Shown here: one piece after another, positions 7,701 through 60,665 of the stretch | Position numbering within the stretch: position 1 is the stretch's first letter | How the letters are laid out: every line of letters starts with the position of its first letter | Assembly: GCA_036012905.1 (NCBI GenBank) | Contig: DASCQF010000009.1 | Coordinates: 12,982-76,981, forward strand | Length of the DNA stretch: 64,000 nucleotides | Direction: 5' to 3' | Source of the DNA: Vicinamibacterales bacterium | GTDB taxonomy: Bacteria; Acidobacteriota; Vicinamibacteria; Vicinamibacterales; UBA8438 | Made by a program: the position numbers and the translations under genes | The notes under the pieces: generated by a model | What the model saw: only the letters and a program-made list of their open reading frames with translations | Databases searched by the model: none | Told to the model about the DNA's origin: nothing

Positions 7701-9623
7701 TCAGTCGAAGAAGTGCTGAAACCACAACTCCAGATTCACGCAACTCCAGATGGCAAACGTCTTGTTGGCCCGGCCCTCACAGTGCGCCTTGAAGTCCTGC
7801 TGAATCTGCCTCACATCGAACACGCCGCGATCTTTGAAGCTCCTGGATGCCAGAAGCTCCCCAATTGGATCTCGCAACTCTTCCTGAAACCAGACCTGGG
7901 CAGACGTCGTGAATCCAAGCTTGCTGATTCGAGAACTGACTGCCTCTGGCAGCTCTGACTGCAGTGCCCGACGCAAGATATACTTATTGACCCCAGCGCG
8001 GATCTTCAGATCCGACGGAATCGAAAACAAGAACTCCACAAGTCGATGATCGAGAAACGGCTGGCGGGTCTCCACGGAAAAGGCCATGCTGTTGCGGTCT
8101 TCATAGCGCAGCCACGCCGGGATCGGGGACACCTCGGCCCCGGCCATGAGCTCATTCGTCAAGTAGCTTGACGAGCGCGACCGACTCGGTCGGGCCACGG
8201 TCTCATGCCGCTTCGCGAAATCCGGGTCCAGACGAGGAAAATGGCGCCGACGCAGACCAAGTCCGTCCCTGACCGCACCCAGCGGACGTGATGCCAATAG
8301 GCGGCCTACTCGCCCAAGGCTCGATGCGACGGACACACCGTGGACGGCCCGAGCGGCACGAAGCTCGCGCACGAAAGCCACTAATCGGAGCTGCTTCAAG
8401 AGATCTGTCTGAAAAGACGTGAGATGTGGGTAGTACCCAGCTGTTGTTTCGTCGCCACCGTGACCGTTGAGTAACACGGTAACGCCGGACGACCGTGCAC
8501 GCTCCATGAGCATCCAATGTGCGAGCATGGTCATGCTCGTCCACGGCTCGTCCTGGTGGGCGATCATCTTCGGCAGAAGGTCGAAGAGTCGGCCCGGATC
8601 AGGAAAGAGGAAGTGCGCTGTGGCTCCCGTCTTCTCGACGACCGGCTCCATGAACTCGCGCTCGTCGAATCGCGCGTCCTCAGCGCAGGACGAGAACGTC
8701 GTCACATTGTCGAGCATTGTCGCCGCCATGCAGACCGCCGACGAGGAGTCCAGCCCGCCGCTCAGGCAGAATCCGATGGGAACGTCGCTCCGGAGACGCA
8801 GCTTGACCGATTCCCTGAACAAGGATCCGAATTGCTCGATGTACTCCTCATCGCGAGCCGCACGCGGCGATCGGGTCTCTGCAAGCTGCCAATACCTTCT
8901 GACCTTGATATCTGACCGGCTGACGAACATCGAGTGACCGGCTGGCAGCTGCCGAATGCCTTCGAAAAATGTTTGATCCGAAGTGTCGGTAAATCCATAG
9001 CCGGTTGCCGCGTAGTCGAACACAGTCGAGTAGTTCGGGGCCTTTGTCACGCCCGGGTACTCGAGCACAGCCTTGATCTCTGATGCCAGGACCACGACGC
9101 TCTCACTGCTGAAAAAATACAGCGGCTTCTCGCCGAAGCGATCTCTCGAACAGAACAAGACCTGCGCGTTTCCGTCCCACAGGATGAACGCCCACATGCC
9201 ATTGAACCGCTGCACGCAATCTGCGCCGTACTCCTCGTACGCCCGAAGCACGACCTCGGTATCAGAGGTCGTGCTGAACACATGGCCTCGTGCACGCAGC
9301 TCGTCTCGCAGCTCGACGTAGTTGTAGATCTCACCGTTGTAGGTCAGCCAGATCTTGCCATCCGCGCTGCCCATCGGCTGGTGAGCCGCTGGCGACAGAT
9401 CGAGGATGCTGAGACGCCTGTTGCCCAGACCCAGATCCCAGTGAGCGGCCCGACCCTCGGGGCGAGAAGGGTCCAGAGCGCTCTTTGCCTCTGTTGCCGT
9501 ATTGAAGAGGATATGCCCCTCGTCATTCGGTCCACGATGCCTGATCGCCCAGGTCATCTTCTTCAATGCCGAGACATCCACCCGTCCGCCCTGCCGATCG
9601 AATACCGCGGCGACTCCACACAT
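7701..9623 (-). CDS. asnB: asparagine synthase (glutamine-hydrolysing) family amidotransferase
   Basis: It has the N-terminal nucleophile MCGVAAVF and the PP-loop CLSGGLDSS. The 640-aa length fits the family. In glycan clusters this family usually amidates sugar carboxylates. Confidence 0.85.
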   Translation of the reverse strand: MCGVAAVFDRQGGRVDVSALKKMTWAIRHRGPNDEGHILFNTATEAKSALDPSRPEGRAAHWDLGLGNRRLSILDLSPAAHQPMGSADGKIWLTYNGEIYNYVELRDELRARGHVFSTTSDTEVVLRAYEEYGADCVQRFNGMWAFILWDGNAQVLFCSRDRFGEKPLYFFSSESVVVLASEIKAVLEYPGVTKAPNYSTVFDYAATGYGFTDTSDQTFFEGIRQLPAGHSMFVSRSDIKVRRYWQLAETRSPRAARDEEYIEQFGSLFRESVKLRLRSDVPIGFCLSGGLDSSSAVCMAATMLDNVTTFSSCAEDARFDEREFMEPVVEKTGATAHFLFPDPGRLFDLLPKMIAHQDEPWTSMTMLAHWMLMERARSSGVTVLLNGHGGDETTAGYYPHLTSFQTDLLKQLRLVAFVRELRAARAVHGVSVASSLGRVGRLLASRPLGAVRDGLGLRRRHFPRLDPDFAKRHETVARPSRSRSSSYLTNELMAGAEVSPIPAWLRYEDRNSMAFSVETRQPFLDHRLVEFLFSIPSDLKIRAGVNKYILRRALQSELPEAVSSRISKLGFTTSAQVWFQEELRDPIGELLASRSFKDRGVFDVRQIQQDFKAHCEGRANKTFAIWSCVNLELWFQHFFD

Positions 9624-9765
9624 CTGAAATCAGCTACCTCTGTCGTCTCGACGCCGTCGCGCCGGCCGAGCGTCGCACCGCCCGGTCGGTTCCTGGGAAG
9701 TCACGCAATTCGGGCCCAGAGGAACTCGACACACCAGAGAGGTCGATACACATCGGCCTGGAACC

Positions 9766-11283
9766 TCATCCGGCGCCACTTCGCGTCCGGATCGGCAGAA
9801 GCCGCTGATTCCTGAGAATCTCCATAGGCACCCGAAGATCAGCGGCCCTGAGCTCGCGCAGGGCGGCAAGCACCGCCACGTACCCTATGAGCACCAGGGC
9901 CCCGACGACGACCATGGGCAGCGCCGACCCGCGCAACACGCCGAACACCGCGGCCGCTGAAACGAAGCTCAGCGCACTCGCCCAGATGCACTTCGCCGGA
10001 ATCATTGCTCGCACGATCGGCGCCAGCACCAATATCAGAACGACGCTGACCACATTCGCGGTCAAGAGAGCTCCAATTGCCCCCCAGACACCGTAAGGTG
10101 GGACGAGCACCGCGGTCGCCAAAATCTGCAGACCGACGTGACTGGTGCTGACAATGAAGATCACCCGCACCTGGCTGAAAGCGTTCGTCAGAAATAGCCC
10201 AAGCGGCTCACGTGTCGTCCGTAACAGGAACACGATGAGGAGCGCTCGCGCGTACACCACGACCTCCGCGTACGAGGGACCGTAGAGCCACGACACCACC
10301 GGTTCGATGGCAAAGAAGCCGCCGAGACTGACGAGGACGGAAGCCTGAAACAACCACCGAAACACTAAGGTGAATTTCCGGCGCAAGTTCTCCATGTCGC
10401 TACTCGAAATCTCGGCGATGTATGGCGCGAGAACGGCCGGCAGCACCTTGAAGACGCTGACGAAGGCATCAAGGAAGGTCGACGCGATGTAGTAGAGCGC
10501 GACGACACCGGGCGAGCTGAACCGTCCGAGCAGGATCTTGTCGAACCACGACACCCCGAACCGATAGAGGCCCTGAAAGCTGAGCAACAGACCGAAGCGA
10601 GCGACGGTCCCGCACGCGTCGGTGAAGCTGCGCCGTGACTGGCCAACGAGCGCTCGTCGAAAACTCGGTGGCAGCCACCGCGCGGCGATCCCGACGGCAG
10701 TCACGGCCGCCACGGCGTTCCCGACGAGGATCCACTCGATCGAACCTCGTGCCACGAGCCCGATCACGCACACCGACGCAATCTGCAGGTGCCCGAACAG
10801 AATCGTCAAGAAGCTTTCCCGCCGCCAGTCCTGCAGAGCCTGAAACACCTGCAGGGAAAAGTCCAGCAACGCAAAGGCAGCAAAGTAGATGACCCCGGCG
10901 TGGATGAGTGGCGTCAGGCCGGGCAACAGGAAGACATGTGTCGCGACGAGGTCCGCGCTGACGAACATCAACGTCCCGAACGTGATGATGCCGGCCAGCT
11001 GGATGAGAACGCTCGCACCAAAAAGATCGACGGCTCTTTGCTCATCACCGTCATTGAGCCACAGCGGAACGAACCGGATCAGGGTGGTCTTGGTGCCGAA
11101 ATCCGACAGCACGGAACCTAGAGCCGCCAGGGAGTAGACCAGAATGAGCGTCCCGTACTGCTCCTGACCATACACTCGGTTGAGCAGAACCGATACGGTC
11201 AGGCCGGCGAACACGCGAAAGGCGTTCGCGGACGTCTTGAGGATGACCCCTTCACCGAGCTGGGAGACCCGACTGACGTTCAT
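9766..11283 (-). CDS. Wzx-like oligosaccharide flippase (MOP superfamily polysaccharide biosynthesis protein)
   Basis: The protein is polytopic and hydrophobic, and it is a paralog of the interrupted ORFs at 23533-25110. I trimmed the start to MNVSRVSQ (11283), downstream of the upstream gene's stop. Confidence 0.8.
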   Translation of the reverse strand: MNVSRVSQLGEGVILKTSANAFRVFAGLTVSVLLNRVYGQEQYGTLILVYSLAALGSVLSDFGTKTTLIRFVPLWLNDGDEQRAVDLFGASVLIQLAGIITFGTLMFVSADLVATHVFLLPGLTPLIHAGVIYFAAFALLDFSLQVFQALQDWRRESFLTILFGHLQIASVCVIGLVARGSIEWILVGNAVAAVTAVGIAARWLPPSFRRALVGQSRRSFTDACGTVARFGLLLSFQGLYRFGVSWFDKILLGRFSSPGVVALYYIASTFLDAFVSVFKVLPAVLAPYIAEISSSDMENLRRKFTLVFRWLFQASVLVSLGGFFAIEPVVSWLYGPSYAEVVVYARALLIVFLLRTTREPLGLFLTNAFSQVRVIFIVSTSHVGLQILATAVLVPPYGVWGAIGALLTANVVSVVLILVLAPIVRAMIPAKCIWASALSFVSAAAVFGVLRGSALPMVVVGALVLIGYVAVLAALRELRAADLRVPMEILRNQRLLPIRTRSGAG

Positions 11284-11320
11284 AGGAAGGGTCTCAGGCG
11301 CATCCCATCCGGGTGCCACT

Positions 11321-12055
11321 TCATTCTCGTAACGCCTGCGCGAGCAGAGTGCGTGTGAGCACTCGTGGGCGGTCGGTTCCCAGCTCGATGAGGTATGCAA
11401 GGTTGAGGAACGCGAACCAGAGCTTTCGCAGCGCCAGCCAGACGATGAACCTGGGCCTCCAGCGAAGGCGCATCCGCTCGCCGAACACGCTGATGCGCTT
11501 GAAGCCCACGGTCTCCAGGACCTTCCGCAGCGAGAGGTCGTTGAAACACACTTCGTGGGTCAGACTGATGTAGCGAAGGTACGGGCCTGCAACACCGGCG
11601 GCGTTGTTCGTCCGCACGAGCAGGATCCCGCCCGGACGAAGAGCCTCTCTGAGGGCGTCCAGGATCGCGAGCAGGTCGGACTTCGGAAAGTGCTCGATCA
11701 CATCGCCCAGATAGATCACGTCGTACCGGGCTGGATGCGATGTCAAGAACTCCTGAAGGTCGGAAATCCGCGTCACCGGGCACCCCACGAGACGCTCGCA
11801 ATACGCAATCAGATGTTCCGAAATCTCCACGCCTTCGATCTTCTGATACCCTCGCTGCTTCAGAAAGTACAGGAATTCGCCCATACCGCAGCCGATGTCG
11901 AGGATCGCCGCTTCCTTGTTTGCGGGTAACAAGGACTCGTAGTTGTCTTCCAGCCATTCCTGACCGCGCCCCCTAACCCGCAGGAACTCCTCGACGGGGG
12001 GCAGCGAACCCTGGAAGTCGATGTTGTGATACCGCTCAGCGTAGTGTTCAGTCAC
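11321..12055 (-). CDS. class I SAM-dependent methyltransferase
   Basis: SAM motif I is ILDIGCGMGEFLYFL, followed by the acidic loop VEISE and YDVIYLGDVIEH. Confidence 0.85.
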   Translation of the reverse strand: MTEHYAERYHNIDFQGSLPPVEEFLRVRGRGQEWLEDNYESLLPANKEAAILDIGCGMGEFLYFLKQRGYQKIEGVEISEHLIAYCERLVGCPVTRISDLQEFLTSHPARYDVIYLGDVIEHFPKSDLLAILDALREALRPGGILLVRTNNAAGVAGPYLRYISLTHEVCFNDLSLRKVLETVGFKRISVFGERMRLRWRPRFIVWLALRKLWFAFLNLAYLIELGTDRPRVLTRTLLAQALRE

Positions 12056-12070
12056 GAGTTTGTGCTCCCC

Positions 12071-13507
12071 TCACGAGGCGCTCGAACGCGATGGCGGAAT
12101 CGCCCCCATCGCGGGCCGCGGTTCCGGCTTGAAGGTCGTCCCCGACAGCGCGTGGCGCACCAACTCGACGTTGCGCCCGACATCATCTCGATGGGCCGCG
12201 AGAATTTCCTGGATCTTCCGCTCCATGCGGACCGCAAGCGTCTGGTCAACGAGCGCCCGCACCACCGCTGTCGTGAGATCGGCGGCCGTGGAAATCCGCA
12301 CCCCACTCCACACCGCTTCCAGATCATCGGTGATTTCCCGCCACAGATTCATGAACGGTCCAAAGAACACGGGGCGCCCGTGTGCGAGTGGCTCAACCGG
12401 GTTCTGACCGAGTCCTGCGCGCTGGCGCGGGTACGTCGTGCCACCGAGAAACACGACCGATGCGAGGGAGTAGAGGTTCGCCAACTCGCCAAACGTGTCG
12501 ACGACGATGACGGGCGTGTCAACGGCAGACTTGCGTGCCAGCGAGCTCTTGAGCACCGGGGTCAACCCCCGCTCGGATAGATGCGAAACCATTCTGGAGG
12601 TGTCGAACTGATACCTCGGCACCAACAAGAGACGCAGGGCCGCGATCTCCCGTCGGGCTTCCAGATAGGCCGACGCCACGAGCTCTTCCTCACCCGGGTG
12701 CAGGCTCGCGGCGAGCAAGACCGGCTCGTCAGGTGCGAGCCGAAGCTCCCGGTACAAACCCTGTCTCGCGTGGTCCGGCACCTGCAGGTACTCCAAGTCG
12801 AACTTCATGTTGCCGGTCACCATGACTCGATCTGGTCGAGCGCCATGCTCGATGAAGCCTTTGACATCCTCCTGACTCCAGGCCCCGATCCAATCCAGGT
12901 GGCCGAACGGCCGCCGTGCCAGGGTGCGTTCGAACATCGGATGACGATCCACACCCTTACTCAACAGGCCACTCACCAGAATGGTGGTCACACCGTGCCG
13001 CTTGGCCTCCTCGACGAGCACCGGGCACCTCAGGTTTTGAATGCAGATGAACGCAGCCGGTTTCAACCGGCGCAAACATCGGCGCACTGGTCCGCGGCAG
13101 TCCCAGGGACTGTCGAGCACGGCGTCGACGTCAAGACTTGATGTCGCAAAATCATAGGAGTACCGGGTGTTGGTGGAGAGCACGAACCGCCACCGAGGGA
13201 GGACGGAACGAAGCACACGGCAGAAGGTCACGATCTGGGTGACCTCCCCGCCCGATAGCGCGTCGATCCACAGGACGGGACCTCCCTGAGCGGCGGTGGC
13301 GACCGGTGCGGGCACGAAGCCCCATCGGCTCCAGAAATACCTCCGCCAGTACGGGTCCCGTCCGAAAACCACTCGGCGCAGGAAGGTGACCGGCGCGTGG
13401 AGATAGGCCGCTGCGGCGTAACGCCACTGCTCCGGTTGCCACTTGCGGAACCGGCGCACGTCAGCCCCGGCGGGGGGAAGACGCCGGCGCGTTCCGGCAG
13501 GCCGCAC
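12071..13507 (-). CDS. GT30 glycosyltransferase homologous to 3-deoxy-D-manno-octulosonic-acid (Kdo) transferase WaaA
   Basis: By eye it aligns with E. coli WaaA: LWIDALSGGEV vs HSVSVGET, VTGNMKFD vs VTGSLKFD, ASLHPGEEE vs TSTHEGEES, VDTFGELANLY..FLGG vs GDTMGELMLLY..FVGG, and GQNPVEPLAHGRPV vs GHNPLEAAAHAIPV. Confidence 0.8.
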   Translation of the reverse strand: MRPAGTRRRLPPAGADVRRFRKWQPEQWRYAAAAYLHAPVTFLRRVVFGRDPYWRRYFWSRWGFVPAPVATAAQGGPVLWIDALSGGEVTQIVTFCRVLRSVLPRWRFVLSTNTRYSYDFATSSLDVDAVLDSPWDCRGPVRRCLRRLKPAAFICIQNLRCPVLVEEAKRHGVTTILVSGLLSKGVDRHPMFERTLARRPFGHLDWIGAWSQEDVKGFIEHGARPDRVMVTGNMKFDLEYLQVPDHARQGLYRELRLAPDEPVLLAASLHPGEEELVASAYLEARREIAALRLLLVPRYQFDTSRMVSHLSERGLTPVLKSSLARKSAVDTPVIVVDTFGELANLYSLASVVFLGGTTYPRQRAGLGQNPVEPLAHGRPVFFGPFMNLWREITDDLEAVWSGVRISTAADLTTAVVRALVDQTLAVRMERKIQEILAAHRDDVGRNVELVRHALSGTTFKPEPRPAMGAIPPSRSSAS

Positions 13508-14235: not shown

Positions 14236-14343
14236 GTCAGAACGGAGCTGCCAAGGGACCGTGACGGAACACGGCGCTACGGTTCGTGGGCATCTCGCGC
14301 CGCCGCAGTCGCCGACTCACGTTGACCGGCGATATGGCGGACG

Positions 14344-15366
14344 CTACGACGATGACAACACCGAGACCGGAATCTGATGTCCGGCGGAGATTTCGACCGC
14401 GGACGTCTTTCCGACAACGGCAGGCAGCGACGCAGGGGGCAGTCCACCACCCGGCCGCAGGCACGTGAGCTGTTCGGCGGTGATGACACGACCCGCCTTG
14501 ATGTCGACCCGGGCGGACACGCTACGACGAGCACCGGTCAGATTCTCACGTTCGCAGGCAGGTAGCGACTTGTCTCCGGTCCCCATCATCGTACTAACGG
14601 CGGTGACCGAGGCCACCAAGGCCTCCAGATCGTCAGGATCCGCCGACAGCTGATGGTCACGAAGGGTTCGCCCTTCCTTCTGCAGCGTGAAATGCTTTTC
14701 GACAACGCACGCGCCAAGCGCAACCGCTGCAGTGCAGCCAAAGATTCCGAGTGTGTGGTCGGAATATCCAACCGGCACGCCGAAGCGATTGCGCAAGCTT
14801 GGGATGACCAGCAAGTTGGCGTCAGTCGGCGCGGTTGGGTAGCTCGACACGCAGTGGAGCAGCACGACACGCTGGGCCAGCTCGGATCGCGTCAGCTCTG
14901 CCGCCCGCTGAATCACCGTCAGCGCATCGTCTATCTCGTCGATGGAGGCCATTCCTGTCGACAGTAACATCGGCTTGCCCGTACCGGCCACCCGCTCGAG
15001 CAACTGCACGAACGTCAGATCGCCGGACGCGATCTTGAACGCGGGCACCAGAGGGTCGAGGAGCTCGACAGCCTCGAGGTCGAATGGAGTGGAGAGAAAC
15101 ATCACATCAGCGGACCGAGCCTCATCCGCCAACTCTGCGTACGCCGACTCAGGGAGCGCCAGTTTCTGGAAGTGAGCGAACCGCGCAGCCTCCGTCCGTG
15201 CCACGATCTTGTCTGCCGTGTAGGTCTGGAACTTGACTGCGTCCGCACCCGCGCGGGCCGCCTCCCGGATCATCGTCTTCGCGGCATCGAGGTCACCCTC
15301 GTGGTTCGCACCGATTTCTGCGATGACCAGCGGGCGGGTCTCGAGGTTGACGTTACCGATGTTCAT
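14344..15366 (-). CDS. neuB: N-acetylneuraminate / nonulosonate synthase (NeuB family with C-terminal SAF domain)
   Basis: The N-terminus reads PLVIAEIGANHEGDLDAAKTMIREAARAGADAVKFQTY, with GYSDHTLG further in. The SAF-like C-terminus reads ITAEQLTCLRPGGG. Confidence 0.9.
   Translation of the reverse strand: MNIGNVNLETRPLVIAEIGANHEGDLDAAKTMIREAARAGADAVKFQTYTADKIVARTEAARFAHFQKLALPESAYAELADEARSADVMFLSTPFDLEAVELLDPLVPAFKIASGDLTFVQLLERVAGTGKPMLLSTGMASIDEIDDALTVIQRAAELTRSELAQRVVLLHCVSSYPTAPTDANLLVIPSLRNRFGVPVGYSDHTLGIFGCTAAVALGACVVEKHFTLQKEGRTLRDHQLSADPDDLEALVASVTAVSTMMGTGDKSLPACERENLTGARRSVSARVDIKAGRVITAEQLTCLRPGGGLPPASLPAVVGKTSAVEISAGHQIPVSVLSSS
15267..15366 (-). repeat. copy A of a 100-nt direct repeat (the functional neuB 5' end); copy B is at 17464-17563
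   Basis: My manual ungapped alignment of 15267-15366 against 17464-17563 gives 82/100 identical positions. Both copies end at an ATG. Confidence 0.8.
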
Positions 15367-15530
15367 CTGCGCACCAGCGGATGCTCGCAGAGATCAGACT
15401 AATGATCCTTCAAGGCAATGATTGGCGTTGGAGCGGAGGCATCGCAGGCTTTAGCGTCGGCGGCACCCTGTCGCATGACTCGCGTCCGAAGCGTGGCGAC
15501 CCTGGATCGTCTGTCGTCAACCCCGATCAT

Positions 15531-17423
15531 CTAACGACCCTTTCGAAGCGGCGCCATGTTCGCCAAATCACCTGGAATCGTTTCCAGATCCTTGTCCACG
15601 ATGCGGCGTAGGGATTTGTACTGGTGCATGAAATTGCTGCGTTTCCTAGCGTGGCGAAGCCGCCAAACCAGGTAGTCGACAAGGTTCTTGATGGCGGTAC
15701 CGGGCGTGCCTTGCCTCAGGGTCTTTGCGATCACCATCAATGCGAGCAGCTTGCGAAGCCGGTAGAAAATGACTGGGTAACATATCATCGCAAGGCCCGA
15801 TTGGCCGCTCCGTAACAGGCTCAGAAGTGAAGGTAGTTTCGCCTCGTTAGTCTCAAGTTCGTATTGCTGGCTGGCGGTGTTCATGCGGTCCGCCGTCAAA
15901 CTCGTATCCACGAGACGCTTTGGGTTTGCAAAGTAGCCCGAATCGCGGCGTTTCTTCTTGAAGAATCGAACATCGTTCAGCAGAACTTGATGATAGTGGT
16001 CGAGCCCATACTTTGTGACGTACGCATGGTTCGCTTCTATGGTGATCCGGGGCCGCCAGGATTGCTGCTCCAGTATCGGCGAATCCGTGAAGTTCAGGGT
16101 CGCGTATTCGTCATGGGCATCCTTGTCGGAAATTCGCAACAGATAGGCCTCTTCATCACTCAATGTCCGTCCAATGAGGCCGTGGTGGCGCGCATACTCA
16201 TACAGCGGCGTACCGGGTAGAGCTTGTGCATAGTTGATGCTCAAACTGTTCGGGTTCTGTTTGGGGCTTATGGTCAAGGCTGTCTTGCAGAATTCGATGG
16301 TCTCACCGATCGTCTCAGCATTCTCTCCCGGCATACCGATGACCAACTGAACGACCGAAAGCAACCCGGCCTCGGTCGTCCAACGCATGGCGTTCACATT
16401 GTCCTCGACCGTGGTTCTCTTCTCCATTATTTCGAGCATGCGTGGGCTGCCGGTCTCCATGCCGTAGAGAATGCCGGCACAGCCCGCGTCCTTCATCATC
16501 GCAATCTGCTCGCGCGTGATGCAGTTGACCCTCATGCCGCCGACGAGCCAAAGGATATCCAGCGGCTTGATGCGTTCACAAAACTCCTTCAGCCACTTGC
16601 GGTCGGTGCCGAAGTTCTCGTCGGCGCAGAAGATGAAGCCGACGTTGTACTTGTCTATCAAGGCCCGCAACCGCTCGACGATGATTGCCGGTGGAATATA
16701 TCGGATGCCTCTATCCCATCGATGACAGAAGGTACACCGTGCTACGCATCCCTTGGCACCTGGCACCATCATGAACCGTCTTCCCTGACGATGCGCCTCG
16801 CGTGCCCGCGGGTCATGCGCGAACCGCCCCCCAGTCCATGCATCATCGCTGGTGACCTCGGTCACGTAGTTCTCCATGTCAGCCGCGTCGGCCAAGATCT
16901 GCCAATCGATGTCGTATATTTCCGTCTTGTCTAGGGCTGGTGGATACCCGGTGTTGACCAGTTCGCCAGATCCTCCGACGAACATCAGGCCCGGAACATC
17001 CTTGAAGGCGTCGAGATTCCGAGTCTTCTCGGCCCGCACGACTATTTCGCGCATCACCCACTCGCCTTCACCAATCACGCAAAGGTCGACGCCCGTACAG
17101 CGCAGGACAATCTCCGCGCTCGCCGCGAGGTTTCCGCCAAGGACGATGAGGGTGTCTGGTAGTTGTGCCTTGACCGCGGTGGATAGATTCTTGGAGTACT
17201 CGTAGGCCGTCGAGACCACCGCACTGATGCCCAAAACGTCCGGATTCTTGCTGACGATATGAGCGACGGCATCGTCAAAATCAGGTCGGTTGCCATCAAT
17301 GTGGTAGAACTCGACGTCATCGATGCCATGTCGATTCAGATAGCTGATGATACTGAGCGATCCGATCGGCGGCATGTCGGTCGGTATCGGGCGAATTGGG
17401 GTGGTGACAAACATGACCTTCAT
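15531..17423 (-). CDS. B12-binding-domain radical SAM enzyme (class B, probable methyltransferase)
   Basis: The N-terminal region is cobalamin-binding-like (MKVMFVTTPIRPI...VLGISAVVSTAY...VLGG). The radical-SAM cluster motif is CVARCTFC (CX3CX2C). The length is 630 aa. Confidence 0.85.
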   Translation of the reverse strand: MKVMFVTTPIRPIPTDMPPIGSLSIISYLNRHGIDDVEFYHIDGNRPDFDDAVAHIVSKNPDVLGISAVVSTAYEYSKNLSTAVKAQLPDTLIVLGGNLAASAEIVLRCTGVDLCVIGEGEWVMREIVVRAEKTRNLDAFKDVPGLMFVGGSGELVNTGYPPALDKTEIYDIDWQILADAADMENYVTEVTSDDAWTGGRFAHDPRAREAHRQGRRFMMVPGAKGCVARCTFCHRWDRGIRYIPPAIIVERLRALIDKYNVGFIFCADENFGTDRKWLKEFCERIKPLDILWLVGGMRVNCITREQIAMMKDAGCAGILYGMETGSPRMLEIMEKRTTVEDNVNAMRWTTEAGLLSVVQLVIGMPGENAETIGETIEFCKTALTISPKQNPNSLSINYAQALPGTPLYEYARHHGLIGRTLSDEEAYLLRISDKDAHDEYATLNFTDSPILEQQSWRPRITIEANHAYVTKYGLDHYHQVLLNDVRFFKKKRRDSGYFANPKRLVDTSLTADRMNTASQQYELETNEAKLPSLLSLLRSGQSGLAMICYPVIFYRLRKLLALMVIAKTLRQGTPGTAIKNLVDYLVWRLRHARKRSNFMHQYKSLRRIVDKDLETIPGDLANMAPLRKGR

Positions 17424-17563
17424 GATCCCGACCTCTGCAGCAAGGGAGGGTTTGTCGCCTCCAAGATCATAGTGTTCGCGGCCTCGAGGTGACCCTCATG
17501 GCTCGCACCGATTCTTGGGATGACCAACTGGCGTGTCTGGGGGTTCACGTTACTGACGTTCAT
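17420..17563 (-). pseudogene. remnant of a neuB-like 5' end (47-codon ORF), translationally coupled to the B12 radical-SAM gene
   Basis: The ORF MNVSNVNPQTRQLVIPRIGASHEGHLEAANTMI... matches NeuB MNIGNVNLETRPLVIAEIGANHEGDLDAAKTMI at 21/33 residues, and homology stops after about 35 codons. Its TGA overlaps the ATG of the radical-SAM gene (ATGA at 17420-17423). Its own ATG lies inside the 3' end of the upstream fusion gene. Confidence 0.65.
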
Positions 17564-19343
17564 CGAGTCGAGTCCAGGCAATATCCGTGCGCGCGACAGC
17601 CAGTGGCCGCCGTGGTGGCACATCGGACTGACTCCGCAGCACATCTGGGTGCCGTGTAAAAAATTCCACGACGTCATCCATCCGATAGGTGACCGCCCTC
17701 CCTTGTTTTCGCATCGCTGTCAGAAACGTACGAATAACCTGCAGGTCATCCGGTGTATCGAGCGTCAACCGCCAGTCTCGCCGGTGCTGCGGATCGACCG
17801 GCCCGCATGACGCACGAAACTGGTCTCGATGCCGTGCGACGTAGAAGGTCAGATATTCGGTGCCGCTCGTATCAACCGCCGCGTCGGCCAGAAACCGCAG
17901 GAGCGCCACGTCGAACACCTCCACCTCCGTACCGCCCGGAAGCTGCTTCATGTCCGTGTACTCCGCGTTGACGTGCAGATGGTGATCGACGGCGCGGTCG
18001 ACATAGTCGGGATCGATCAGGATATCGTCACCGGTCACCCGAAGGATGACGTCCACTTCACCCGCACCGATCGCGCCGAGCATCCGGGCCAGGACGTCCT
18101 CGGTTTCACCTCGATGGACCTCCACCCCGTTCTTCCGCGCCAGACTCGCCAGCGGATCGTCCGCGTCGTCGTTCGTCGTGCAGAGCACGATGTGGTCGAC
18201 ACGCGTGGCCTGCTTCAAGCGTGCGAAGAGATGGGCCAATGCCGGCGTCCCGTCCACGTCGACGAGTGCTTTGCCGGGCAACCTCGATGATTCCATCCGG
18301 GACACGACGAGCGCCCACACGCGATTTGGAACATCGGCCCGCGTGAGGACGTGCTCGGCCGGTCGGTCATCGAGCAACGGTCGACCGAGCAGTGCCCGAA
18401 GATCCGGCACATCCTTCGGTTCATCGGCCCGTTTCATCACCAGACTCGTTTGCTCGATCACCTCTCCGCGTCGCATCTCACGAGCCGTGACCCAGTGTTT
18501 CTTCACGTCGCGACGATAGCTCGCCTCAGACTGAGCCAACCGATCTGGGTATCGGCCAACGGCCTGCTCGGCTCGGCGGATCGTTCGCACGAACTCGGTG
18601 AACTCGTCGGGATTCAACGACGAGTAGTAGTCGACCCCGCGGACGGCCCGGTCGAGGGTGATGTGCTTCTCGATGACGGTGGCGCCCAGCCCGAGTGCGA
18701 GCACGGGCAGCGTCACCGCGAACGGATCCTCCGCATCGACGTGGTCCATATAGCCCACGTCACAACTGCCTCCGAATATCTCTCGGAGCCGGGTCAGACG
18801 CCCGAGACGCGTGTCCTCAATCGACGTCGGGTAGCTCTGAAACCCATGCATGAGCACCGGACGAGCCCCTCGCTCGGTCAGCAACTCTACGGCCGCCGCG
18901 ATCTCCCGGTATGTGCTGCCACCCACCGCCAACATGACGCGTCGACCGACACCGGCGAGGGCGCGCAGCAGCGGTTCATTGCCGAGGTCCGATGAGTGGA
19001 CCTTGAACCCCTGAACGCCCGCACCCAGGGCCAGCTCGAGCGCTCGCATGCCGAACACATCACAATACACACGAGCTTCGCGATCCTGAAGACGGGCGAT
19101 CAGATCTCGCCAGACCGCCGCAGAGAACGCCTGTTGGTCAAAGTGATCGAACCGCGGGTGCCGTCGAACCAGCAGCTCGTCGGCAAAGTAGATCTGAAAC
19201 TTGATGGCGGTGGCTCCGGTCGTCAGGGCGGCTTCAGCGAGCTGCCTCGCTCCCTTCGGGCTGCCCTGATGAGCGTTGGCCACCTCGGCGATGATGTCCA
19301 CTCCAGGTTCGCCCTCTGGCGGTCTTGGCGGGCTAGCACTCAT
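17550..19343 (-). CDS. fusion protein: NeuB/SpsE-like nonulosonate synthase domain + SAF region + SpsF-like cytidylyltransferase domain
   Basis: The N-terminal half reads IIAEVANAHQGSPKGARQLAEAALTTGATAIKFQIY...GYMDHV, which is NeuB-like. The C-terminal half reads ALVVSRMESSRLPGKALVDV...HRGETEDVLARM...RVTGDDILIDP, which matches the B. subtilis SpsF pattern RMGSTRLPGK/FRGSEENVLDRF/RLTGDNP. I took the start at MSASPP (19343); alternatives exist up to 19442. Confidence 0.8.
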   Translation of the reverse strand: MSASPPRPPEGEPGVDIIAEVANAHQGSPKGARQLAEAALTTGATAIKFQIYFADELLVRRHPRFDHFDQQAFSAAVWRDLIARLQDREARVYCDVFGMRALELALGAGVQGFKVHSSDLGNEPLLRALAGVGRRVMLAVGGSTYREIAAAVELLTERGARPVLMHGFQSYPTSIEDTRLGRLTRLREIFGGSCDVGYMDHVDAEDPFAVTLPVLALGLGATVIEKHITLDRAVRGVDYYSSLNPDEFTEFVRTIRRAEQAVGRYPDRLAQSEASYRRDVKKHWVTAREMRRGEVIEQTSLVMKRADEPKDVPDLRALLGRPLLDDRPAEHVLTRADVPNRVWALVVSRMESSRLPGKALVDVDGTPALAHLFARLKQATRVDHIVLCTTNDDADDPLASLARKNGVEVHRGETEDVLARMLGAIGAGEVDVILRVTGDDILIDPDYVDRAVDHHLHVNAEYTDMKQLPGGTEVEVFDVALLRFLADAAVDTSGTEYLTFYVARHRDQFRASCGPVDPQHRRDWRLTLDTPDDLQVIRTFLTAMRKQGRAVTYRMDDVVEFFTRHPDVLRSQSDVPPRRPLAVARTDIAWTRLDERQ

Positions 19344-23532: not shown

Positions 23533-25110
23533 CTACGACCGGTGCCCCGCCATCGCCAGGGGCTGCCAGGCGGCGGCAGCCACCATCTTCACGACCTCCC
23601 AATCCCTGCGTGTGAGCTCACTCAGCAGAGCCAGCGCCAAACAGTACACGGCCGGGGCCGCGACGCCGCACGCGAGCGCGGCGGGCGTGCCTGCCGGACG
23701 CAGCATATGCGCACTGCCCACGACAAGAACGGCGGCGCCTAGGGCCCGGGCGATCGACGTCATCGGCACGATGCGTCGCATGTGCGCAACGGTCACGAGC
23801 GTGATCACCCGTGTCAGACCGTACGCCAGGAACGTGGCGGCGATGGCGCCCGGCGCGCCGAAGCTCGGAATCAGGGCCAGATCGAAGATCAGCACCGCGC
23901 ACCCGAGCAGGCTGCTCAGGGCGACCGATTCTTTCACGAGGTTGTAAGCGTTCATCGCGAAGATGCCGTAGGCGACCCAACCCGCCCGCAGCACAAAGAC
24001 TGGAAGCAGCATCCGGAAAAGCGGCACCGCATCCGCGTAGTCTGGTCCAAACGCTAGCCCCACGAACGGCTCAACCAGGAAGAACACGGTGACAGCGAGC
24101 AGGGTGGCACCGTGCAGGAACCACCGGAATAGCACCTGGAATCTCACCCTGATGTAGTCCTGATCCATCGTGGATATCTTCGAGACGTATGGGGTCAGCA
24201 CCAGCGTCAGCACGTTGACGACCGTCATCATGGCGCCGATGAACAGGCCTGCAAGGTAGTACGTCGCGACTTCGCCGGGCGAGCGCCACCAGCCGAGCAT
24301 GAGCTTATCCGCCCAACTGAGTGCGTAGAAGCTCTAGGCGACGGCCTTTAGGGGAAGGCCGAACCGCCACACCAGGGCGGCATGCTCGGACACCGTCCGG
24401 AACCGCAGCAAGGCGCCAGCCCGACGCCACATCCAGTGCCGAACGAGGCCCAGCCCAAGGACCGCGCTCCCGAACGCACAGCCGCCAGTAATGATGAGCG
24501 CGGCGGTGACCGTGAGATCGGCGAACGTCACCCACAAGCCGAGCACCAGCAACTGGGACCCTATGAACACGAACCCGATGAGCGCCTCTCGCTTCCAGTC
24601 CTGGAGGCTCTGGTAGAGTTGCGCGACGAAATCCCGAAGGGCAATCCCCACGAAGTACAGCGCACCGATGGCGAGGGGCCAGGCTAGCGCTGGCACTCGA
24701 AAGAATCGATCAGCCAGCAGGTTCGCTGTGCCCAGAATCACGAGCGCGCAGAACGCCGCTCCCGCGAGCTGGATGAGTAGCGCCGCGGCCGCCAAGTCGG
24801 CCGCTGGTCCGGGCGACTCAGCGTCTGGCTTACGGACCGGCAGGTATCGGATGAGAGTACTCTTCGCGCCAAAATCTGAGAGCACGAAAGCCAGCCCGGT
24901 GACGCTGTAGACCAGCACCAGAAGTCCGTAGTCCTCTCGGCCGAGCGCGCGACTCAAGATCACGGACGCCAGAAAGCTCCCGACCAGGGCGACGAGGGTC
25001 GCCCCCAACTTGAGCCTGACGCTCCGGCCCAGCGCGAGCACTTCCGCCGCAGTCCCGGTGGGACCGACTCCGCTCGCGTTGGTCGGCACGGAATCGGCAG
25101 TCTCAGGCAA
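23533..25110 (-). pseudogene. Wzx-like flippase paralog interrupted by a single in-frame TAG (24334-24336)
   Basis: ORFs 24334-25110 and 23533-24300 are in the same frame (I checked the coordinates modulo 3). Read through, the junction is FGLPLKAVA*SFYALSWADKLMLGWW, which aligns with FGLLLSFQGLYRFGVSWFDKILLGRF in the intact paralog at 9766-11283. Confidence 0.7.
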
Positions 25111-25172: not shown

Positions 25173-26183
25173 TCAGAGAGCAGAACGGCGGGACGCAGGG
25201 ATCGTCTGATCGCCGGGCCAACCTCCACCCTCGGCCGGTACGTCGACCAACTCCTCGTGAACTTCGTAGTCCGTCTCCGATTCGAAGGTCATCGGGCACG
25301 TGCACTCCGCGCACATCGAGAGCGCTGTGAAGTCGCGGAGCATGGTATCGCGATACTTCACATACGCGGGACCGTTCCAGATCTCTCGAAACGGCGTCGT
25401 AAACACGTTCCCGAACGGATACCAATTGTTGAAGTCCATGTCGCAGATCGTGACCGAGCCATCGCCATTGATGTTCGTCATCAGGTAGGGCTTGTCGCAG
25501 GTCGTGACGGAGCGCTTCAGCCGTAGGCGACCCGCCTCCATGCGGTAACGCGTCGCGTGCTCGACATCGGCGGGGATGAGGTCGGTGGTGTCTGGTGACC
25601 CGTCGAACTTCTCGCCGATACCGTAGTGCACGTCGAGCGTCTTGAGCCGCACGATATCGACGCCGAGACTGGCTGCGCGTCGCCGGAACGGTTCCGCTTG
25701 ACTTGCTGCATCCCGGTGCAAGAGCAACTGGAGGTGCACCACCGGCTTTCGCCTACCCATCGTGCGGCGCCGCTCGACGAGCCGCTTGATACCCTGATTG
25801 AGCTTGGCGTAGTCGCCGCCGACCCGATAGGTGAGGAACGTATCGGCATCCAGCCCGTCGTAGGCGATGATCGCCACGTCCAGCCCGGAGCTGATCATGA
25901 GCTCGACGTTCATCTCGTTCAGAAAGTGCCCGTTCGTATTGATCGTGATGTCGATCGGACTGTACCGCCGTTTCGCGTACCCGATCATGTCGAACAGCTC
26001 TTTGTTCATCGTCGGCTCGCCGATGCCGACGAGCTGCAGAGTCTTCGTGTACGGTCCAAGCTGGTCGATGACCGTCTTGAAGTCTGCGAACGAGACCACA
26101 GCCGTCTCTCGATCCATGCGTCCCGTGGTCAACGGGCAGAGCGGACACTCGAGGTTGCAACGATTGATCGGCTCGAAGTGCAC
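25173..26183 (-). CDS. radical SAM enzyme with SPASM-like C-terminal Cys cluster
   Basis: The radical-SAM motif CNLECPLC lies only 9 residues from a GTG start. The C-terminal Cys residues are in TCDKPYLMTNINGDGSVTICD and CAECTC. The in-frame upstream extension runs into the IS terminal repeat and stops there. Confidence 0.8.
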   Translation of the reverse strand: MHFEPINRCNLECPLCPLTTGRMDRETAVVSFADFKTVIDQLGPYTKTLQLVGIGEPTMNKELFDMIGYAKRRYSPIDITINTNGHFLNEMNVELMISSGLDVAIIAYDGLDADTFLTYRVGGDYAKLNQGIKRLVERRRTMGRRKPVVHLQLLLHRDAASQAEPFRRRAASLGVDIVRLKTLDVHYGIGEKFDGSPDTTDLIPADVEHATRYRMEAGRLRLKRSVTTCDKPYLMTNINGDGSVTICDMDFNNWYPFGNVFTTPFREIWNGPAYVKYRDTMLRDFTALSMCAECTCPMTFESETDYEVHEELVDVPAEGGGWPGDQTIPASRRSAL

Positions 26184-26196: not shown

Positions 26197-27622
26197 TAGG
26201 TTAGTTCTTAAGCAGATACGCGCCTGAAACGCTGAGACGAAGGGGGCGTAGCCCCGTAGCGAGGCGTCCCTTTGTCCGATCCCGATTGGGATGCGCGCGT
26301 TGCGCATTGTCGGCAAGATACCGCACAAGATCACGGAAGCGGTGTGTGACACGATGCGCCTGCAACACGGCCTTGAAGAGATCCGTGGCCTTGTACCGAA
26401 AGGCCATGGCGGCATTGCGCGTCGAGATGTCCACGTCTCTCACGACGAGTTCCGTCACGTGGGCGACGAAGCGCTTCAGGAGGGCGGCGGCGAGGGAGGC
26501 CCAGATAAGTCCCTCCGCAATCGACGGATTGGCCGTACGGAAGGCGTGGAGGTTCGCATAGGACGTCCACTCCTTAAAGAGGAGTTCAATCTGCCAGCGG
26601 AGACGGTAGAGGTCGCGAACGGATGCGCACGTGAAGGCCTCGCTCGGCAGGTTGGTGACGAAGGCCAGGTGCTCCTTCCGCCTGCGGTTCCACAGCAGCA
26701 GGAGTCGAAACGGTGGGTCGGTCTTCTTCCAGCGCACGAGTAGGTCACCAGACCTGCCCCTGAGGCGTGCTCGGAGGGTGTCCAGCGTGCGTCCGCCCCA
26801 CGAAGGGCGCTCACGTCCCCCGACCAGCGCACGGACGACGACCGGGTTGATCTTCGTCTGAAAGCGCACGATGAAGGAGCCCCCGGCGTGGTGCACACGC
26901 CGACAGTAGGCGACATCCATGTAGCCCCGGTCGGCCAGCAGCAGCTTGCGACGCAGGTCCCCGGGAGCCGGCAGAAACTGGCGCTCGCCGGCGGCATCCG
27001 GTGTCAGGTGGACTCGGATGGCTTGGTCGTGGAAGAGACTCATTGTGGCATGCAGCTCCACGGCGGCGGGACTGATTTTCGTGAACCGCCCGGGAAAGGT
27101 GTCCCGCAAGGCGTCCACGACCGCGAACGACGTCCCGTCTTGCAGCAAGATAGCGTCGAAGCCGCGCAGCGCATGCCCCGGCACGGGGGCAAGCACGCGG
27201 ACCACCAGGTGCTGCAACAGGTGCTCGAAGAGCTGCCACGTGAACGTCGGAAAGGCCGGCTTCGCCAGTTGGGTGTGAAAGGGTTTGTATTGCACCGATC
27301 GGTCCGCGAGGGCATTGAAGACCCGCAGGATGTCGGCGAGCGTCTTGGTGCTGTAGCATGACAGGCTCGTCAGCAGGGCGATGGCCATCCGGTGAGGGGT
27401 GACCGCTCGCAGCCGGTGCGTGAACCCGGTCGTGCGGCCCAGTCGCGTGATGCCGCCCTCGCCCAACACGCGGGTGAGCCGGCGAGAGAACTTGGTAAAC
27501 TGGCGTCTGTTCATCGGGGGCCTCCGTTGCTTGAGTGGTCGTCGCAACACCAATTCTAGCAACCAGACCCCGGTGAACACTGTAAAGCTCTTAAAACAAA
27601 GCAGCTCTAAAGATCCTACCTA
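26197..27622 (-). mobile_element. IS4-family insertion sequence (about 1.4 kb, single DDE transposase)
   Basis: The imperfect terminal inverted repeats are TAGGTTAGTTCTTAAG (26197-26212) and the reverse complement of 27607-27622, TAGGTAGGATCTTTAG; I count 12/16 matches. The transposase stop lies inside the left repeat. I could not identify a target-site duplication, so the ends are approximate. Confidence 0.65.
26201..27514 (-). CDS. IS4-family DDE transposase
   Basis: It carries LLADRGYMDVAY (DDE_Tnp_1 D-x-G-Y motif), WQIELLFKEWTSYANL and a C-terminal basic region. The start at MNRRQFTKF is preceded by GGAGG. Confidence 0.85.
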   Translation of the reverse strand: MNRRQFTKFSRRLTRVLGEGGITRLGRTTGFTHRLRAVTPHRMAIALLTSLSCYSTKTLADILRVFNALADRSVQYKPFHTQLAKPAFPTFTWQLFEHLLQHLVVRVLAPVPGHALRGFDAILLQDGTSFAVVDALRDTFPGRFTKISPAAVELHATMSLFHDQAIRVHLTPDAAGERQFLPAPGDLRRKLLLADRGYMDVAYCRRVHHAGGSFIVRFQTKINPVVVRALVGGRERPSWGGRTLDTLRARLRGRSGDLLVRWKKTDPPFRLLLLWNRRRKEHLAFVTNLPSEAFTCASVRDLYRLRWQIELLFKEWTSYANLHAFRTANPSIAEGLIWASLAAALLKRFVAHVTELVVRDVDISTRNAAMAFRYKATDLFKAVLQAHRVTHRFRDLVRYLADNAQRAHPNRDRTKGRLATGLRPLRLSVSGAYLLKN

Positions 27623-27646: not shown

Positions 27647-28144
27647 ATGAGCACCAGAGGCGGTCGAGCGGGACGGAGGGGTCGAGGCCCGGGGTCGGTG
27701 GCGCGCATCGCAACAGCCGCCGGCGTCATCCTTTGCTGGGCGTGCGTGGCAACGTCGGTCGCAGCGGGCCGGGGGTCGGCGGCACGACAGACCCAGTCGG
27801 TCTGGGACGGCGTGTATACCCAAGCCCAGGCGCAGCGTGGCGAGCCGCTCTACGAGGCAGCGTGCGCCGAGTGCCACGGGTCCGATTTGACCGGGATCGA
27901 GGTGGCTCCGGGACTGGCCGGCGGCGAGTTCGTCTGGAACTGGAATGGACTGACGGTCGGCGACCTGTTCGAGCGGGTGCGGATCTCGATGCCGCAAGCC
28001 GATCCCAACAGCATCAGCCGACAGGAGAAAGCCGACATCCTGGCCTACATGCTTCAGGTCAGCGGCTTTCCGGCTGGGGAAACCGAAATGGCCAGCCGGA
28101 CAAATCAGCTGCGCGGCGTGAGCTTCCTCGCTGTGGAGCCCTGA
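27647..28144 (+). CDS. periplasmic mono-haem c-type cytochrome
   Basis: It has a single CAECH haem-binding motif, a distal Met region and a signal-like N-terminus. An alternative GTG start (VARIATAAGVIL...) at about 27698 would give a cleaner signal peptide. Confidence 0.75.
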   Translation: MSTRGGRAGRRGRGPGSVARIATAAGVILCWACVATSVAAGRGSAARQTQSVWDGVYTQAQAQRGEPLYEAACAECHGSDLTGIEVAPGLAGGEFVWNWNGLTVGDLFERVRISMPQADPNSISRQEKADILAYMLQVSGFPAGETEMASRTNQLRGVSFLAVEP

Positions 28145-28187
28145 CCCTCATCGTCATCAACATCAACTTGAAACTCTCACAGGAAAG

Positions 28188-29576
28188 ATGCGCTGCCCAT
28201 CTCGCGTCTGTAGGCGGGCAGGTCATCGGTCGACCCTCAGGACACTGCTGTCCGGTCTCTTGCTGCTGGCTGTCGCATGCGTGCCCTCGGTCGGGACGCC
28301 CCCGACAGAAGACACCGCGGTGTGGTTCGAGGGCGCCACGCTCATTGACGGCGAGGGCGGCGACCAGATCGAACGCTCCAGCTTCCGCGTCGAGGAGGGC
28401 GTGTTTACCTGGGTGGGCCGGCTGGGAGAACGAGACGTCCCGGAGGGCGCCACGCGGGTGGACCTGACCGGCAAGACGGTGATCCCCGCGCTGATCGACG
28501 CCCATCAGCACATCGGCCTCACGAACGTCAAGGACGGAACGAGCCACCACGACAATTACACGCGGGCGAATCTCATCGAGCAGCTCGAGCGATCCGCCTA
28601 TCACGGGGTGGCCGCCACGATGAGCCTCGGGCTCGAGGTCGACGAGGCGCTGGCGTTCGAGTTGCGTGACCAGACGATTCCGCATGCGGCGCGTTTCCTC
28701 ACCTCGGGACGCGGCATCGCCGCCACATCGATGGCCGGTCCCCAGCAGGACTATCGGCTGGGGATCCCACGGGGAGCTCGCTCCGCCGTCGAAGGACGCG
28801 CGGCCGTCGAGGAGCTTCAGGCAAACGGAGTGGACCTGGTCAAGATCTGGGTCGACGACCGGGGAGGGGCGGTCCCGAAGCTTGGGCCGGAGGTTTACCG
28901 GGCAATCATCGACGAGGCGCATATCCGAGGCATGCGGGTGGTGGCGCACGTGGGCACGACCAGCGCGCTCGAGGACGCCAAGGACCTGCTCCGGGCCGGC
29001 ATCGACGGGTTCGCCCACACCGTGCGGGACCGGGACATCGACGACGAATATATGACGCTGGTCAGGCTGTACCCCGACGTCTGGACGCTGCCCAACCTGC
29101 CCGGCTCGCCGGTGACGGCGACCGACCTGGCCTGGCTGAGCGAGACGCTGCCACCGTTCGAGATCGACACCCTCAGCCGACAGGCCGAACGCTTCGACGC
29201 CGAGGGGCCAGGCGATCTGTTCGAGCTGCAGTGCCGGAATCTCGCGCGGAACCACGAGGCGGGGATGGTCGTCGGCATGGGAACCGACTCGGGCACCAGC
29301 GTCGCCTGGACCACGCACACCGAGCTGCGCGACATGGTGTCGTGCGGTCTCAGTCCGATGGAGGCGATTGAGTCGGCGACGCGGATCAACGCGCAGATTC
29401 TCGGGCTCGACGACCTCGGCGCGGTGGCCGTCGGAAAGAACGCCTCGTTCGTGGTGCTGGACGCGAACCCCCTCGCCGATATCGCCAACACCCGACAGAT
29501 CTCCCGGGTCTATCTGCGGGGCGCGGAAGTAGACCGTGACGCGCTCAGGGCGAGGTTCCTCGACGAGGCGCGGTAG
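28188..29576 (+). CDS. amidohydrolase-superfamily metal-dependent hydrolase (lipoprotein-type signal)
   Basis: The HxH metal motif is ALIDAHQHIGL, with AHVGT further in and a C-terminal GTDSG...DANPL. The N-terminus LLLLAVAC resembles a lipobox. Confidence 0.85.
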   Translation: MRCPSRVCRRAGHRSTLRTLLSGLLLLAVACVPSVGTPPTEDTAVWFEGATLIDGEGGDQIERSSFRVEEGVFTWVGRLGERDVPEGATRVDLTGKTVIPALIDAHQHIGLTNVKDGTSHHDNYTRANLIEQLERSAYHGVAATMSLGLEVDEALAFELRDQTIPHAARFLTSGRGIAATSMAGPQQDYRLGIPRGARSAVEGRAAVEELQANGVDLVKIWVDDRGGAVPKLGPEVYRAIIDEAHIRGMRVVAHVGTTSALEDAKDLLRAGIDGFAHTVRDRDIDDEYMTLVRLYPDVWTLPNLPGSPVTATDLAWLSETLPPFEIDTLSRQAERFDAEGPGDLFELQCRNLARNHEAGMVVGMGTDSGTSVAWTTHTELRDMVSCGLSPMEAIESATRINAQILGLDDLGAVAVGKNASFVVLDANPLADIANTRQISRVYLRGAEVDRDALRARFLDEAR

Positions 29577-52086: not shown

Positions 52087-52165
52087 AAGTCTCCCCCGTC
52101 CATCGAGCTGAAGCCTTGCCCTACCGATGTCATTCCACGTGAGCTGTTTCCAGTGGCGGTCCCCT

Positions 52166-54163: not shown

Positions 54164-54373
54164 CGCTTCCCCTTGCGTCCTCAGCCATCGCCGGCGCTAC
54201 CGGGACTCTGGGACATGTTGACTGGACGGCTGATTATACCGTCGCCTATCCTCCTTGCTAGACATTGACGGTTCGGTTCGTCGCCGCCAGGCGTTGAACC
54301 ACGGGGGGACGTCGGTGCAGTGCGCGTCACGAATTGCTGAGGACCAGGCTGCTAGAGAAGGGAGCCGCCTGCC

Positions 54374-55293: not shown

Positions 55294-55317
55294 CGTGCGA
55301 CCGGCGGCCGTGAGCGG

Positions 55318-57929: not shown

Positions 57930-57950
57930 ACCCCGGGGGAGGACTGAGCC

Positions 57951-60623: not shown

Positions 60624-60665
60624 AGCTGAACGGGTCCGGCCCCGAGAAACGAAGAGCGTCAGCCT

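Follow-up and report, generated by a model that had tools for sequence, protein, structure and literature searches.

The 64,000-nt stretch of contig DASCQF010000009.1 analysed here (the window, whose numbering is used for all coordinates) stems from an uncultured marine bacterium and contains a polysaccharide cluster of the nonulosonic-acid type. Within this cluster, a gene encoding a B12-binding radical S-adenosylmethionine (radical-SAM) enzyme is flanked by two copies of the 5′ end of neuB, and the comparison with related contigs (L-numbers denote comparison loci or contigs) makes it very probable that this arrangement goes back to one illegitimate insertion, which left a scar by duplicating 110 nt of its target. 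This confidence applies to the event: the duplication, an empty site in relatives, the polarity of the copies, the neutral decay of one of them and selection on the radical-SAM gene can be read from the sequences, whereas we infer the route, i.e., a single-step illegitimate mechanism. Every gene in this part of the window lies on the minus strand. In the order of transcription, a NeuB-cytidylyltransferase fusion gene (19343–17550) is followed by an open reading frame (ORF) of 47 codons (17563–17420), the radical-SAM gene (17423–15531), a 164-nt gap and neuB (15366–14344), past which come a cytidylyltransferase gene and further polysaccharide genes.

The repeat itself is highly significant. When the window was compared with itself (BLASTN), 15259–15367 and 17456–17564 matched at 82.6% identity over 109 nt (112 bits, E = 1.3e-24), which is the only repeat of such kind in the cluster. 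The likeness given in the preliminary description, i.e., 82 of 100 bases and 21 of 33 residues between 15267–15366 and 17464–17563 in an ungapped alignment, was reproduced exactly, and its reservation that the similarity might not be significant was settled by this alignment. Comparison of the junction sequences of the window, L115 and L119 places the limits of the repeat at neuB nucleotides −1 to about +110. The downstream copy (15257–15367) forms the head of the live neuB, whereas the upstream copy (17454–17564) is a neuB pseudogene fragment at the ancestral neuB position. It is indeed a dead end, as had been noticed before, with 36–37 of the 340 neuB codons left. The remnant ORF was likewise confirmed at 17563–17420 and consists of these 36–37 former neuB codons, 10 leader codons and a TGA. 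From its ATG onwards, the ORF has 14 nt in common with the 3′ end of the fusion gene, and at its stop, the TGA and the ATG of the radical-SAM gene overlap as ATGA.

A chance similarity or a chimeric metagenome assembly, in favour of which nothing speaks beyond the metagenomic origin of the sequence, can practically be dismissed in view of the E-value of 1.3e-24 and of the recurrence of the structure. Seven independently assembled contigs hold the same 2.35 kb with 0–1 differences, and the arrangement is therefore not an assembly artefact. Four further contigs from other samples hold a version that is about 6% diverged, so that identical structures are found in 7 + 4 independently assembled contigs of different samples and sources. 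In addition, the two copies are 18% diverged and would not be confused by an assembler. Both explanations were excluded by significance and by this multi-contig recurrence.

A search with the fusion protein led to one relative lineage at 94% and to one relative at 82% identity. The 94% relatives (L115–L118, from four samples including a TARA scaffold and an NCBI metagenome-assembled genome) keep the order of fusion gene, remnant ORF, radical-SAM gene and neuB. In L119, whose fusion protein is 82% identical, the fusion gene (9428–11182) passes directly into neuB (11169–12191, 340 aa); the two overlap by 14 nt here as well, no radical-SAM gene stands between them, and the remaining cluster is collinear with the window. 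Here, window 23109–17456 aligns to L119 5629–11276, i.e., through the fusion gene to neuB +108, and window 15367–14346 aligns to L119 11168–12189. Both copies of the window therefore correspond to one and the same neuB 5′ end in L119. A direct succession of fusion gene and neuB also occurs in the 63% relative L036, and in several 40% relatives neuB is close to the fusion gene. The earlier proposal that neuB once followed the fusion gene directly is supported by L119 and L036, both of which show this order and thus represent the empty site; among the related genomes examined, adjacency of the two genes without the radical-SAM gene was found in L119. Relatives of neuB at 66–69% follow other genes in tight coupling, and no B12 radical-SAM gene lies in their vicinity. 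A scan of GTDB species representatives for closer relatives of the fusion gene returned only ≤45% identity, and the neuB search yielded above 70% identity only the two lineages already known.

The two copies differ strongly in their mode of evolution, as was seen when the first 108 nt of neuB were compared by parsimony between five sequences (two remnants, two full-length copies and L119). Identity of the remnants amounts to 82–84% with the neuB of their own lineage and to 69–74% with L119, while the full-length copies are 82–83% identical to L119. In the remnants, 19 substitutions have accumulated, nine before the split of window and L115 and then six and four after it, and these fall on codon positions 1/2/3 in the numbers 9/6/4. 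The full-length copies, in contrast, carry six substitutions, all of them at third positions (Fisher p = 0.0012 against the remnant). At another 10 sites, the four copies have one state in common that differs from L119, and judged with this one outgroup the copies derive from each other. Conserved NeuB residues were hit in the remnant (AEIGANHEGD to PRIGASHEGH), which also falls short of a working member of the NeuB family (PF03102) with its complete TIM-barrel and N-terminal motif. Because of this substitution pattern and the closeness to the neuB of its own lineage, the upstream copy is a decaying fragment of that gene and the downstream copy the live one.

The decay also offers a relative age. 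Between the window and L115, the remnant is diverged by 11%, in agreement with the four-fold sites (10.7–12.2%) and the synonymous divergence (dS) of 0.14 of the neighbouring genes, whereas dS between the window and L119 amounts to 0.54–0.79. With a total branch of the remnant of about 14 substitutions per 108 nt (about 13%), the insertion would be roughly twice as old as the split of window and L115 (dS 0.14) and would have occurred well after the split from L119. A recent acquisition, as assumed in the preliminary description, does not agree with an insertion that is common to lineages at a dS of about 0.14 and with a remnant substituted at about 13%.

Taken together, the following course of events would account for the scar. 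In the ancestor, neuB would have followed the fusion gene directly and overlapped its last 14 nt. The incoming DNA of about 2.09 kb, comprising the radical-SAM gene, about 30 nt of 5′ flank including the Shine-Dalgarno (SD) sequence and about 164 nt of 3′ flank, would then have entered at neuB codon 37 and duplicated neuB nucleotides −1 to +110. Through this duplication both neighbours stayed intact, with the upstream copy supplying the last codons and the stop of the fusion gene and the downstream copy heading a complete neuB; since the two genes overlapped by 14 nt, both could be preserved only if the overlap was duplicated. Afterwards, the upstream copy would have decayed, with neuB and the radical-SAM gene staying under purifying selection. 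The event would date after the split of the L119 lineage and well before that of window and L115. The fragment would probably have come from a locus like that of the closest homologue in a sister lineage, having moved inside the lineage or having been transferred from a close relative. The suggestion of a segment of about 2.1 kb inserted into neuB with duplication of its 5′ end is thereby retained, with about 2.09 kb between the two copies of nucleotides −1 to +110.

Several observations fit this reconstruction less well. The position of the right junction, exactly 1 nt ahead of the neuB ATG, is not what a random staggered insertion predicts, neither a donor nor an intermediate was found, with the mechanism itself reconstructed, and L119 is the sole outgroup by which the 10 shared sites can be polarised. 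Moreover, the radical-SAM gene shows a dS of 0.93 between the window and L030, the sister-lineage contig with the closest homologue, compared to 0.48–0.79 for other genes shared with this sister lineage, and given these values a simple relocation within the lineage is not established.

As for known mobile elements, the ends of the insert carry no inverted repeats as hallmarks of an insertion sequence (IS) or transposon, the only gene between them is that of the radical-SAM enzyme and the duplication measures 110 nt. The 164-nt spacer contains no attC-type structure of an integron gene cassette (fold z = +1.82, no palindrome), and no integrase family was detected among the cluster genes and the other large ORFs scanned, which make up part of the ORFs of the window. 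Transposon and integron origins were rejected, as their defining features fail.

An alternative option would be a one-sided homologous recombination or a Campbell-type circular integration, in which DNA of a donor carrying radical-SAM gene, spacer and neuB paired homologously within neuB and was joined illegitimately at +110 of the recipient's neuB. The present neuB 5′ end would then be donor DNA and the remnant the recipient's own. Such a route would explain why the homology starts exactly at the ATG, it is reminiscent of the displacement scars proposed for type VI secretion system (T6SS) and Rhs arrays (PMC5361080), and in L032 a 74% homologue of the radical-SAM gene is followed after 134 nt by a NeuB-family gene. 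The latter is, however, 35% identical to the neuB of the window and thus too distant for homologous pairing, and the searches for relatives, made with neuB, with the fusion gene and with the radical-SAM gene, yielded no contig featuring radical-SAM gene, spacer and neuB without the remnant. A donor-derived homologous anchor was not found either: neuB of the window is collinear with that of L119 at 83% nucleotide identity over its whole length, with no foreign patch and no identity step (82% in the first 99 nt, 74–91% along the gene), although this comparison has little power in the case of a very closely related donor. Moreover, the remnant is farther from L119 (69–74%) than the full-length copies (82–83%) and 10 states are common to the four copies, and the problem would merely be moved into the donor. 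We thus consider this route improbable, and the same holds for a donor origin of the present neuB 5′ end.

Far less probable still is the decay of a paralogue, i.e., a whole-gene tandem duplication of neuB, the first copy of which was mostly replaced or deleted on arrival of the radical-SAM gene. Tandem duplications are common in bacteria and a 5′ fragment next to a full copy would look alike as end state. However, no relative carries a full-length second neuB at this position, which the preliminary description had named as the finding that would point to a decayed paralogue, and L119 and L036 have one neuB each. Furthermore, the second copy should be preceded by the 3′ flank of neuB, but no match to the spacer exists in the window or L119, and two or three events would be needed instead of one.

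The insert begins with a leader of about 30 nt (17424–17453), which harbours the GAGG SD sequence at 17435–17432. Over 15–26 nt, including GAGG and GATCATG, the leaders of the window and L115 can be aligned to the sequence preceding the L030 homologue, with a score that was reached by two of 300 shuffles. Between the window and L115, 7 of 33 positions differ over ORF nucleotides 109–141, all of them outside the conserved GAGG and GATCATG. Since this stretch is conserved with L030, the radical-SAM gene arrived with its own ribosome-binding site. The leader fold is no more stable than those of shuffled sequences. The left junction (17440–17465) is spanned by a short inverted repeat (GGAGG...CCTCC in the window, GAGGCGG...CCGCC(C)TC in L115), and the two junctions resemble each other by eye (GCGGCAGAAC vs GCGCAGATGAAC). 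Since the folds do not exceed shuffled sequences in stability, repeat and likeness may be due to chance or may have been left behind when the ends were joined.

At its 3′ end, the insert comprises the non-coding spacer of about 164 nt (15368–15530) between the stop of the radical-SAM gene and the neuB ATG. The spacer differs from L115 at 26 of 164 positions (15.9%) compared to 10.7–12.2% at four-fold sites, and thus evolves at or above the neutral rate. Among 119 loci searched (BLASTN with word size 7, TBLASTX), its only relatives are L115–L117, and its similarity to the downstream flank of L030 and to the 3′ ends of the fusion genes of the window and L119 (Smith-Waterman alignment with shuffles) stays at chance level. 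The result for L030 carries no information, as a native 3′ flank would be unalignable at a dS of 0.93, and in the simplest reading the spacer represents the native 3′ flank of the radical-SAM gene. The region features no terminator, no excess of promoter matches and no Rfam family at E up to 1, and the fold of the spacer is less stable than shuffles (z = +1.8). Directly after the radical-SAM stop, a 43-codon ORF (15399–15530) can be drawn, the ATG of which is TTG in L115, where its stop is also lost; as it is unconserved there, it is not a gene.

Whether the remnant ORF still plays a role in the expression of the newcomer deserves separate consideration. The preliminary description had proposed that the old neuB translation-initiation region now drives the radical-SAM gene. 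This was not substantiated: the gene has its own GAGG, which is conserved in the window, L115 and L030, and retention of the ORF is expected by chance with P = 0.52, i.e., a simulation of neutral decay left the ORF open in both lineages in 52% of the trials. The remnant ORF of L115 has the same 47-codon length and the same ATGA overlap, with no indels in 144 nt, and the two peptides differ at 8 of 37 residues for 12 nucleotide changes. Apart from the first 14 nt, which are constrained as the end of the fusion gene, the peptide thus evolves neutrally. Translation of the remnant and some coupling via the inherited ancestral start site are nevertheless plausible: initiation at the former neuB start with termination at the radical-SAM ATG probably continues to take place, and a coupling of the remnant ORF to the radical-SAM gene is possible.

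A further step would be to assume that the remnant was kept as a useful leader ORF in a relay from the fusion-gene stop to the old neuB start and on to re-initiation at the ATGA, and hence represents an exapted fragment rather than a dead scar. It begins within the fusion gene, just as neuB does in the ancestral coupled pair, its stop overlaps the radical-SAM ATG, and both overlaps as well as the 47-codon length are alike in the window and L115, without indels in 144 nt. However, the peptide behaves neutrally, with 8 amino-acid changes per 12 nucleotide changes and every codon position hit, the neutral simulation keeps both ORFs open in 52% of the trials, and an in-frame TGA has a prior chance of 1 in 3. 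The radical-SAM gene, moreover, has its own conserved SD, which is not masked by a stable or conserved RNA structure (z = −0.26 and +0.06). We therefore regard such a relay as rather doubtful. If true, the scar would be maintained to match the expression of the newcomer to that of the cluster, and a pseudogene fragment would have been exapted for the operon integration of an acquired gene.

The inserted gene (15531–17423) encodes a protein of 630 aa with the domain architecture of B12-binding, class B-type radical-SAM enzymes, i.e., an N-terminal B12-binding domain (PF02310, 1.2e-17, residues 13–127) and a radical-SAM core (PF04055, 4.1e-20, residues 224–379) with the CxxxCxxC motif at residue 226 (CVARCTFC). 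A named class-B subfamily (BchE, HpnJ, PhpK, TsrM and others) could not be assigned among the NCBIfam models, as all 24 of 24 matches stay under their cut-offs, the best one being BchE with 133 bits against a cut-off of 481, and the solved relatives AprD4, TsrM and OxsB are only distant. With a ratio of nonsynonymous to synonymous divergence (dN/dS) of 0.21 against L115, the gene is under purifying selection.

The radical-SAM ORF is more AT-rich than its flanks (GC content 0.535–0.585 vs 0.62–0.65), as had been noted by eye, but the conclusion drawn from it, namely recent acquisition, does not hold. The GC content at third codon positions (GC3) is 0.699 compared to 0.715–0.83 in the neighbours, the deficit resides mainly at the first and second positions (GC1 and GC2), and the sister-lineage homologue in L030 has an equally low GC content of 0.553 within a contig of 0.64. 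For these reasons, the dip is a property of the protein family, mainly of its amino-acid composition, and not the mark of a recent arrival.

This closest homologue (L030/L031) is 78% identical in protein and nucleotide sequence, and the homology of the insert to L030 sets in shortly before the SD and lasts until the stop codon. It sits elsewhere in the sister-lineage genome, beside carbamoyltransferase and GDSL-lipase genes, and L031, which has the same radical-SAM gene, was assembled from the same sequencing run as L119. A cytochrome c and an amidohydrolase gene of L030 match the window at 82–84% nucleotide identity, and on this basis its lineage is about as close as L119. These two genes (window 27741–29576, L030 17967–19743) are located about 6 kb from the radical-SAM gene in L030 and about 10 kb from the insertion in the window, past an IS4 element, and a history of local rearrangement between the two loci is possible.

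Further homologues at 74%, 62% and 56% identity reside inside other NeuB/cytidylyltransferase clusters, e.g., at 10001–11890 of L032 and 7001–8887 of L123, and one of them comes from a Paramagnetospirillum genome. Of the five contexts examined, four place this uncharacterised family in a nonulosonic-acid cluster and the fifth is L030; the contexts of P0003 and P0005 were read from gene tables. Its recruitment to the present cluster is functionally coherent with these homologues in other NeuB/cytidylyltransferase clusters, and the recurring context suggests a so far undescribed radical modification of sialic acid-like sugars. If true, this would be a new enzymatic step. The recurrent link between family and cluster type is a more promising lead than the scar itself; a literature search on B12 radical-SAM enzymes in nonulosonic-acid pathways returned no papers.

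Gene remnants are a familiar sight in polysaccharide clusters, e.g., those for O-antigen or capsule, where they record past reassembly of the cluster. As in these cases, a truncated, non-functional piece lies beside a newcomer and relatives reveal the earlier gene order. In contrast to them, the piece is here the duplicate of the start of a gene that is still intact 2.2 kb away, and it was made by the insertion itself rather than by replacement or an IS, with no IS ends flanking it. Displacement scars were also proposed for T6SS effector-immunity and Rhs/contact-dependent inhibition (CDI) arrays, where they would result from homology-facilitated illegitimate recombination (PMC5361080). There as well, a module inside an operon pushes the resident gene downstream and orphaned pieces remain as record. 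However, these arrays keep orphaned 3′ ends and immunity genes from different strains (PMC5361080), whereas here the 5′ end is duplicated, the copies are mutual closest relatives, and a homologous anchor was tested and not found.

Direct target repeats flanking an insert are also reminiscent of the target-site duplications of transposable elements, yet these measure 2–14 nt compared to about 110 nt here, and the insert has neither terminal inverted repeats nor a transposase but consists of one metabolic gene with its flanks. The succession of segment, insert and segment is exactly that of a Campbell-type insertion-duplication, which, however, would require a circular donor joining the spacer to the neuB ATG, and none was found. 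Overall, the scar belongs to a familiar class and documents, clearly but in no unusual manner, how polysaccharide clusters are rebuilt. As such, it provides a well-resolved natural case of a tightly coupled operon accepting a new gene, and since the site is available both empty and, in two diverged lineages, filled, along with a likely source locus, it lends itself to relative dating and to estimating the rate of scar decay.

Regarding the flanking genes, the fusion gene was called as 597 aa in all related contigs and ends with its stop at 17552–17550; it encodes a NeuB domain (Pfam, 7.9e-44) joined to a cytidylyltransferase domain (CTP_transf_3, 5.5e-21). The live neuB (340 aa) encodes NeuB (Pfam, 1.1e-77) and SAF domains, scores under the NCBIfam cut-offs for NeuB and PseI and shows a dN/dS of 0.16–0.18. 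It is thus a full-length and functional gene, which the insertion shifted downstream by about 2.2 kb relative to the ancestral position. The gap that separates neuB from the following cytidylyltransferase gene measures 108 nt in the window (14236–14343) and L115, compared to 27 nt in L119, for which reason a second small insertion or expansion would adjoin neuB in the lineage of window and L115.

Apart from the scar, three features of the window are worth mentioning. An IS4-family transposase gene (26201–27580; NCBIfam, 6.7e-59), 9 kb from the insertion, abuts a radical-SAM/SPASM gene (25173–26183). Homology to L115 ends at about 26194, and the radical-SAM/SPASM gene encodes 393 aa in L115 but 336 aa here, on account of which the IS4 element appears to have removed the first ~55 codons of the gene and its upstream region. 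Moreover, the second flippase gene of the cluster (Polysacc_synt; 23533–25110, minus strand) carries a TAG at 24334–24336 where L115 has TTG. This nonsense codon splits the 525-aa protein into 258 + 255 aa, and the same split is present in the other contigs of the population. Finally, the region 50110–63496 contains four diverged paralogues of a pyrroloquinoline quinone (PQQ)-dependent dehydrogenase gene with mutual nucleotide identities of 69–78%, three of which share one orientation and one of which is inverted.

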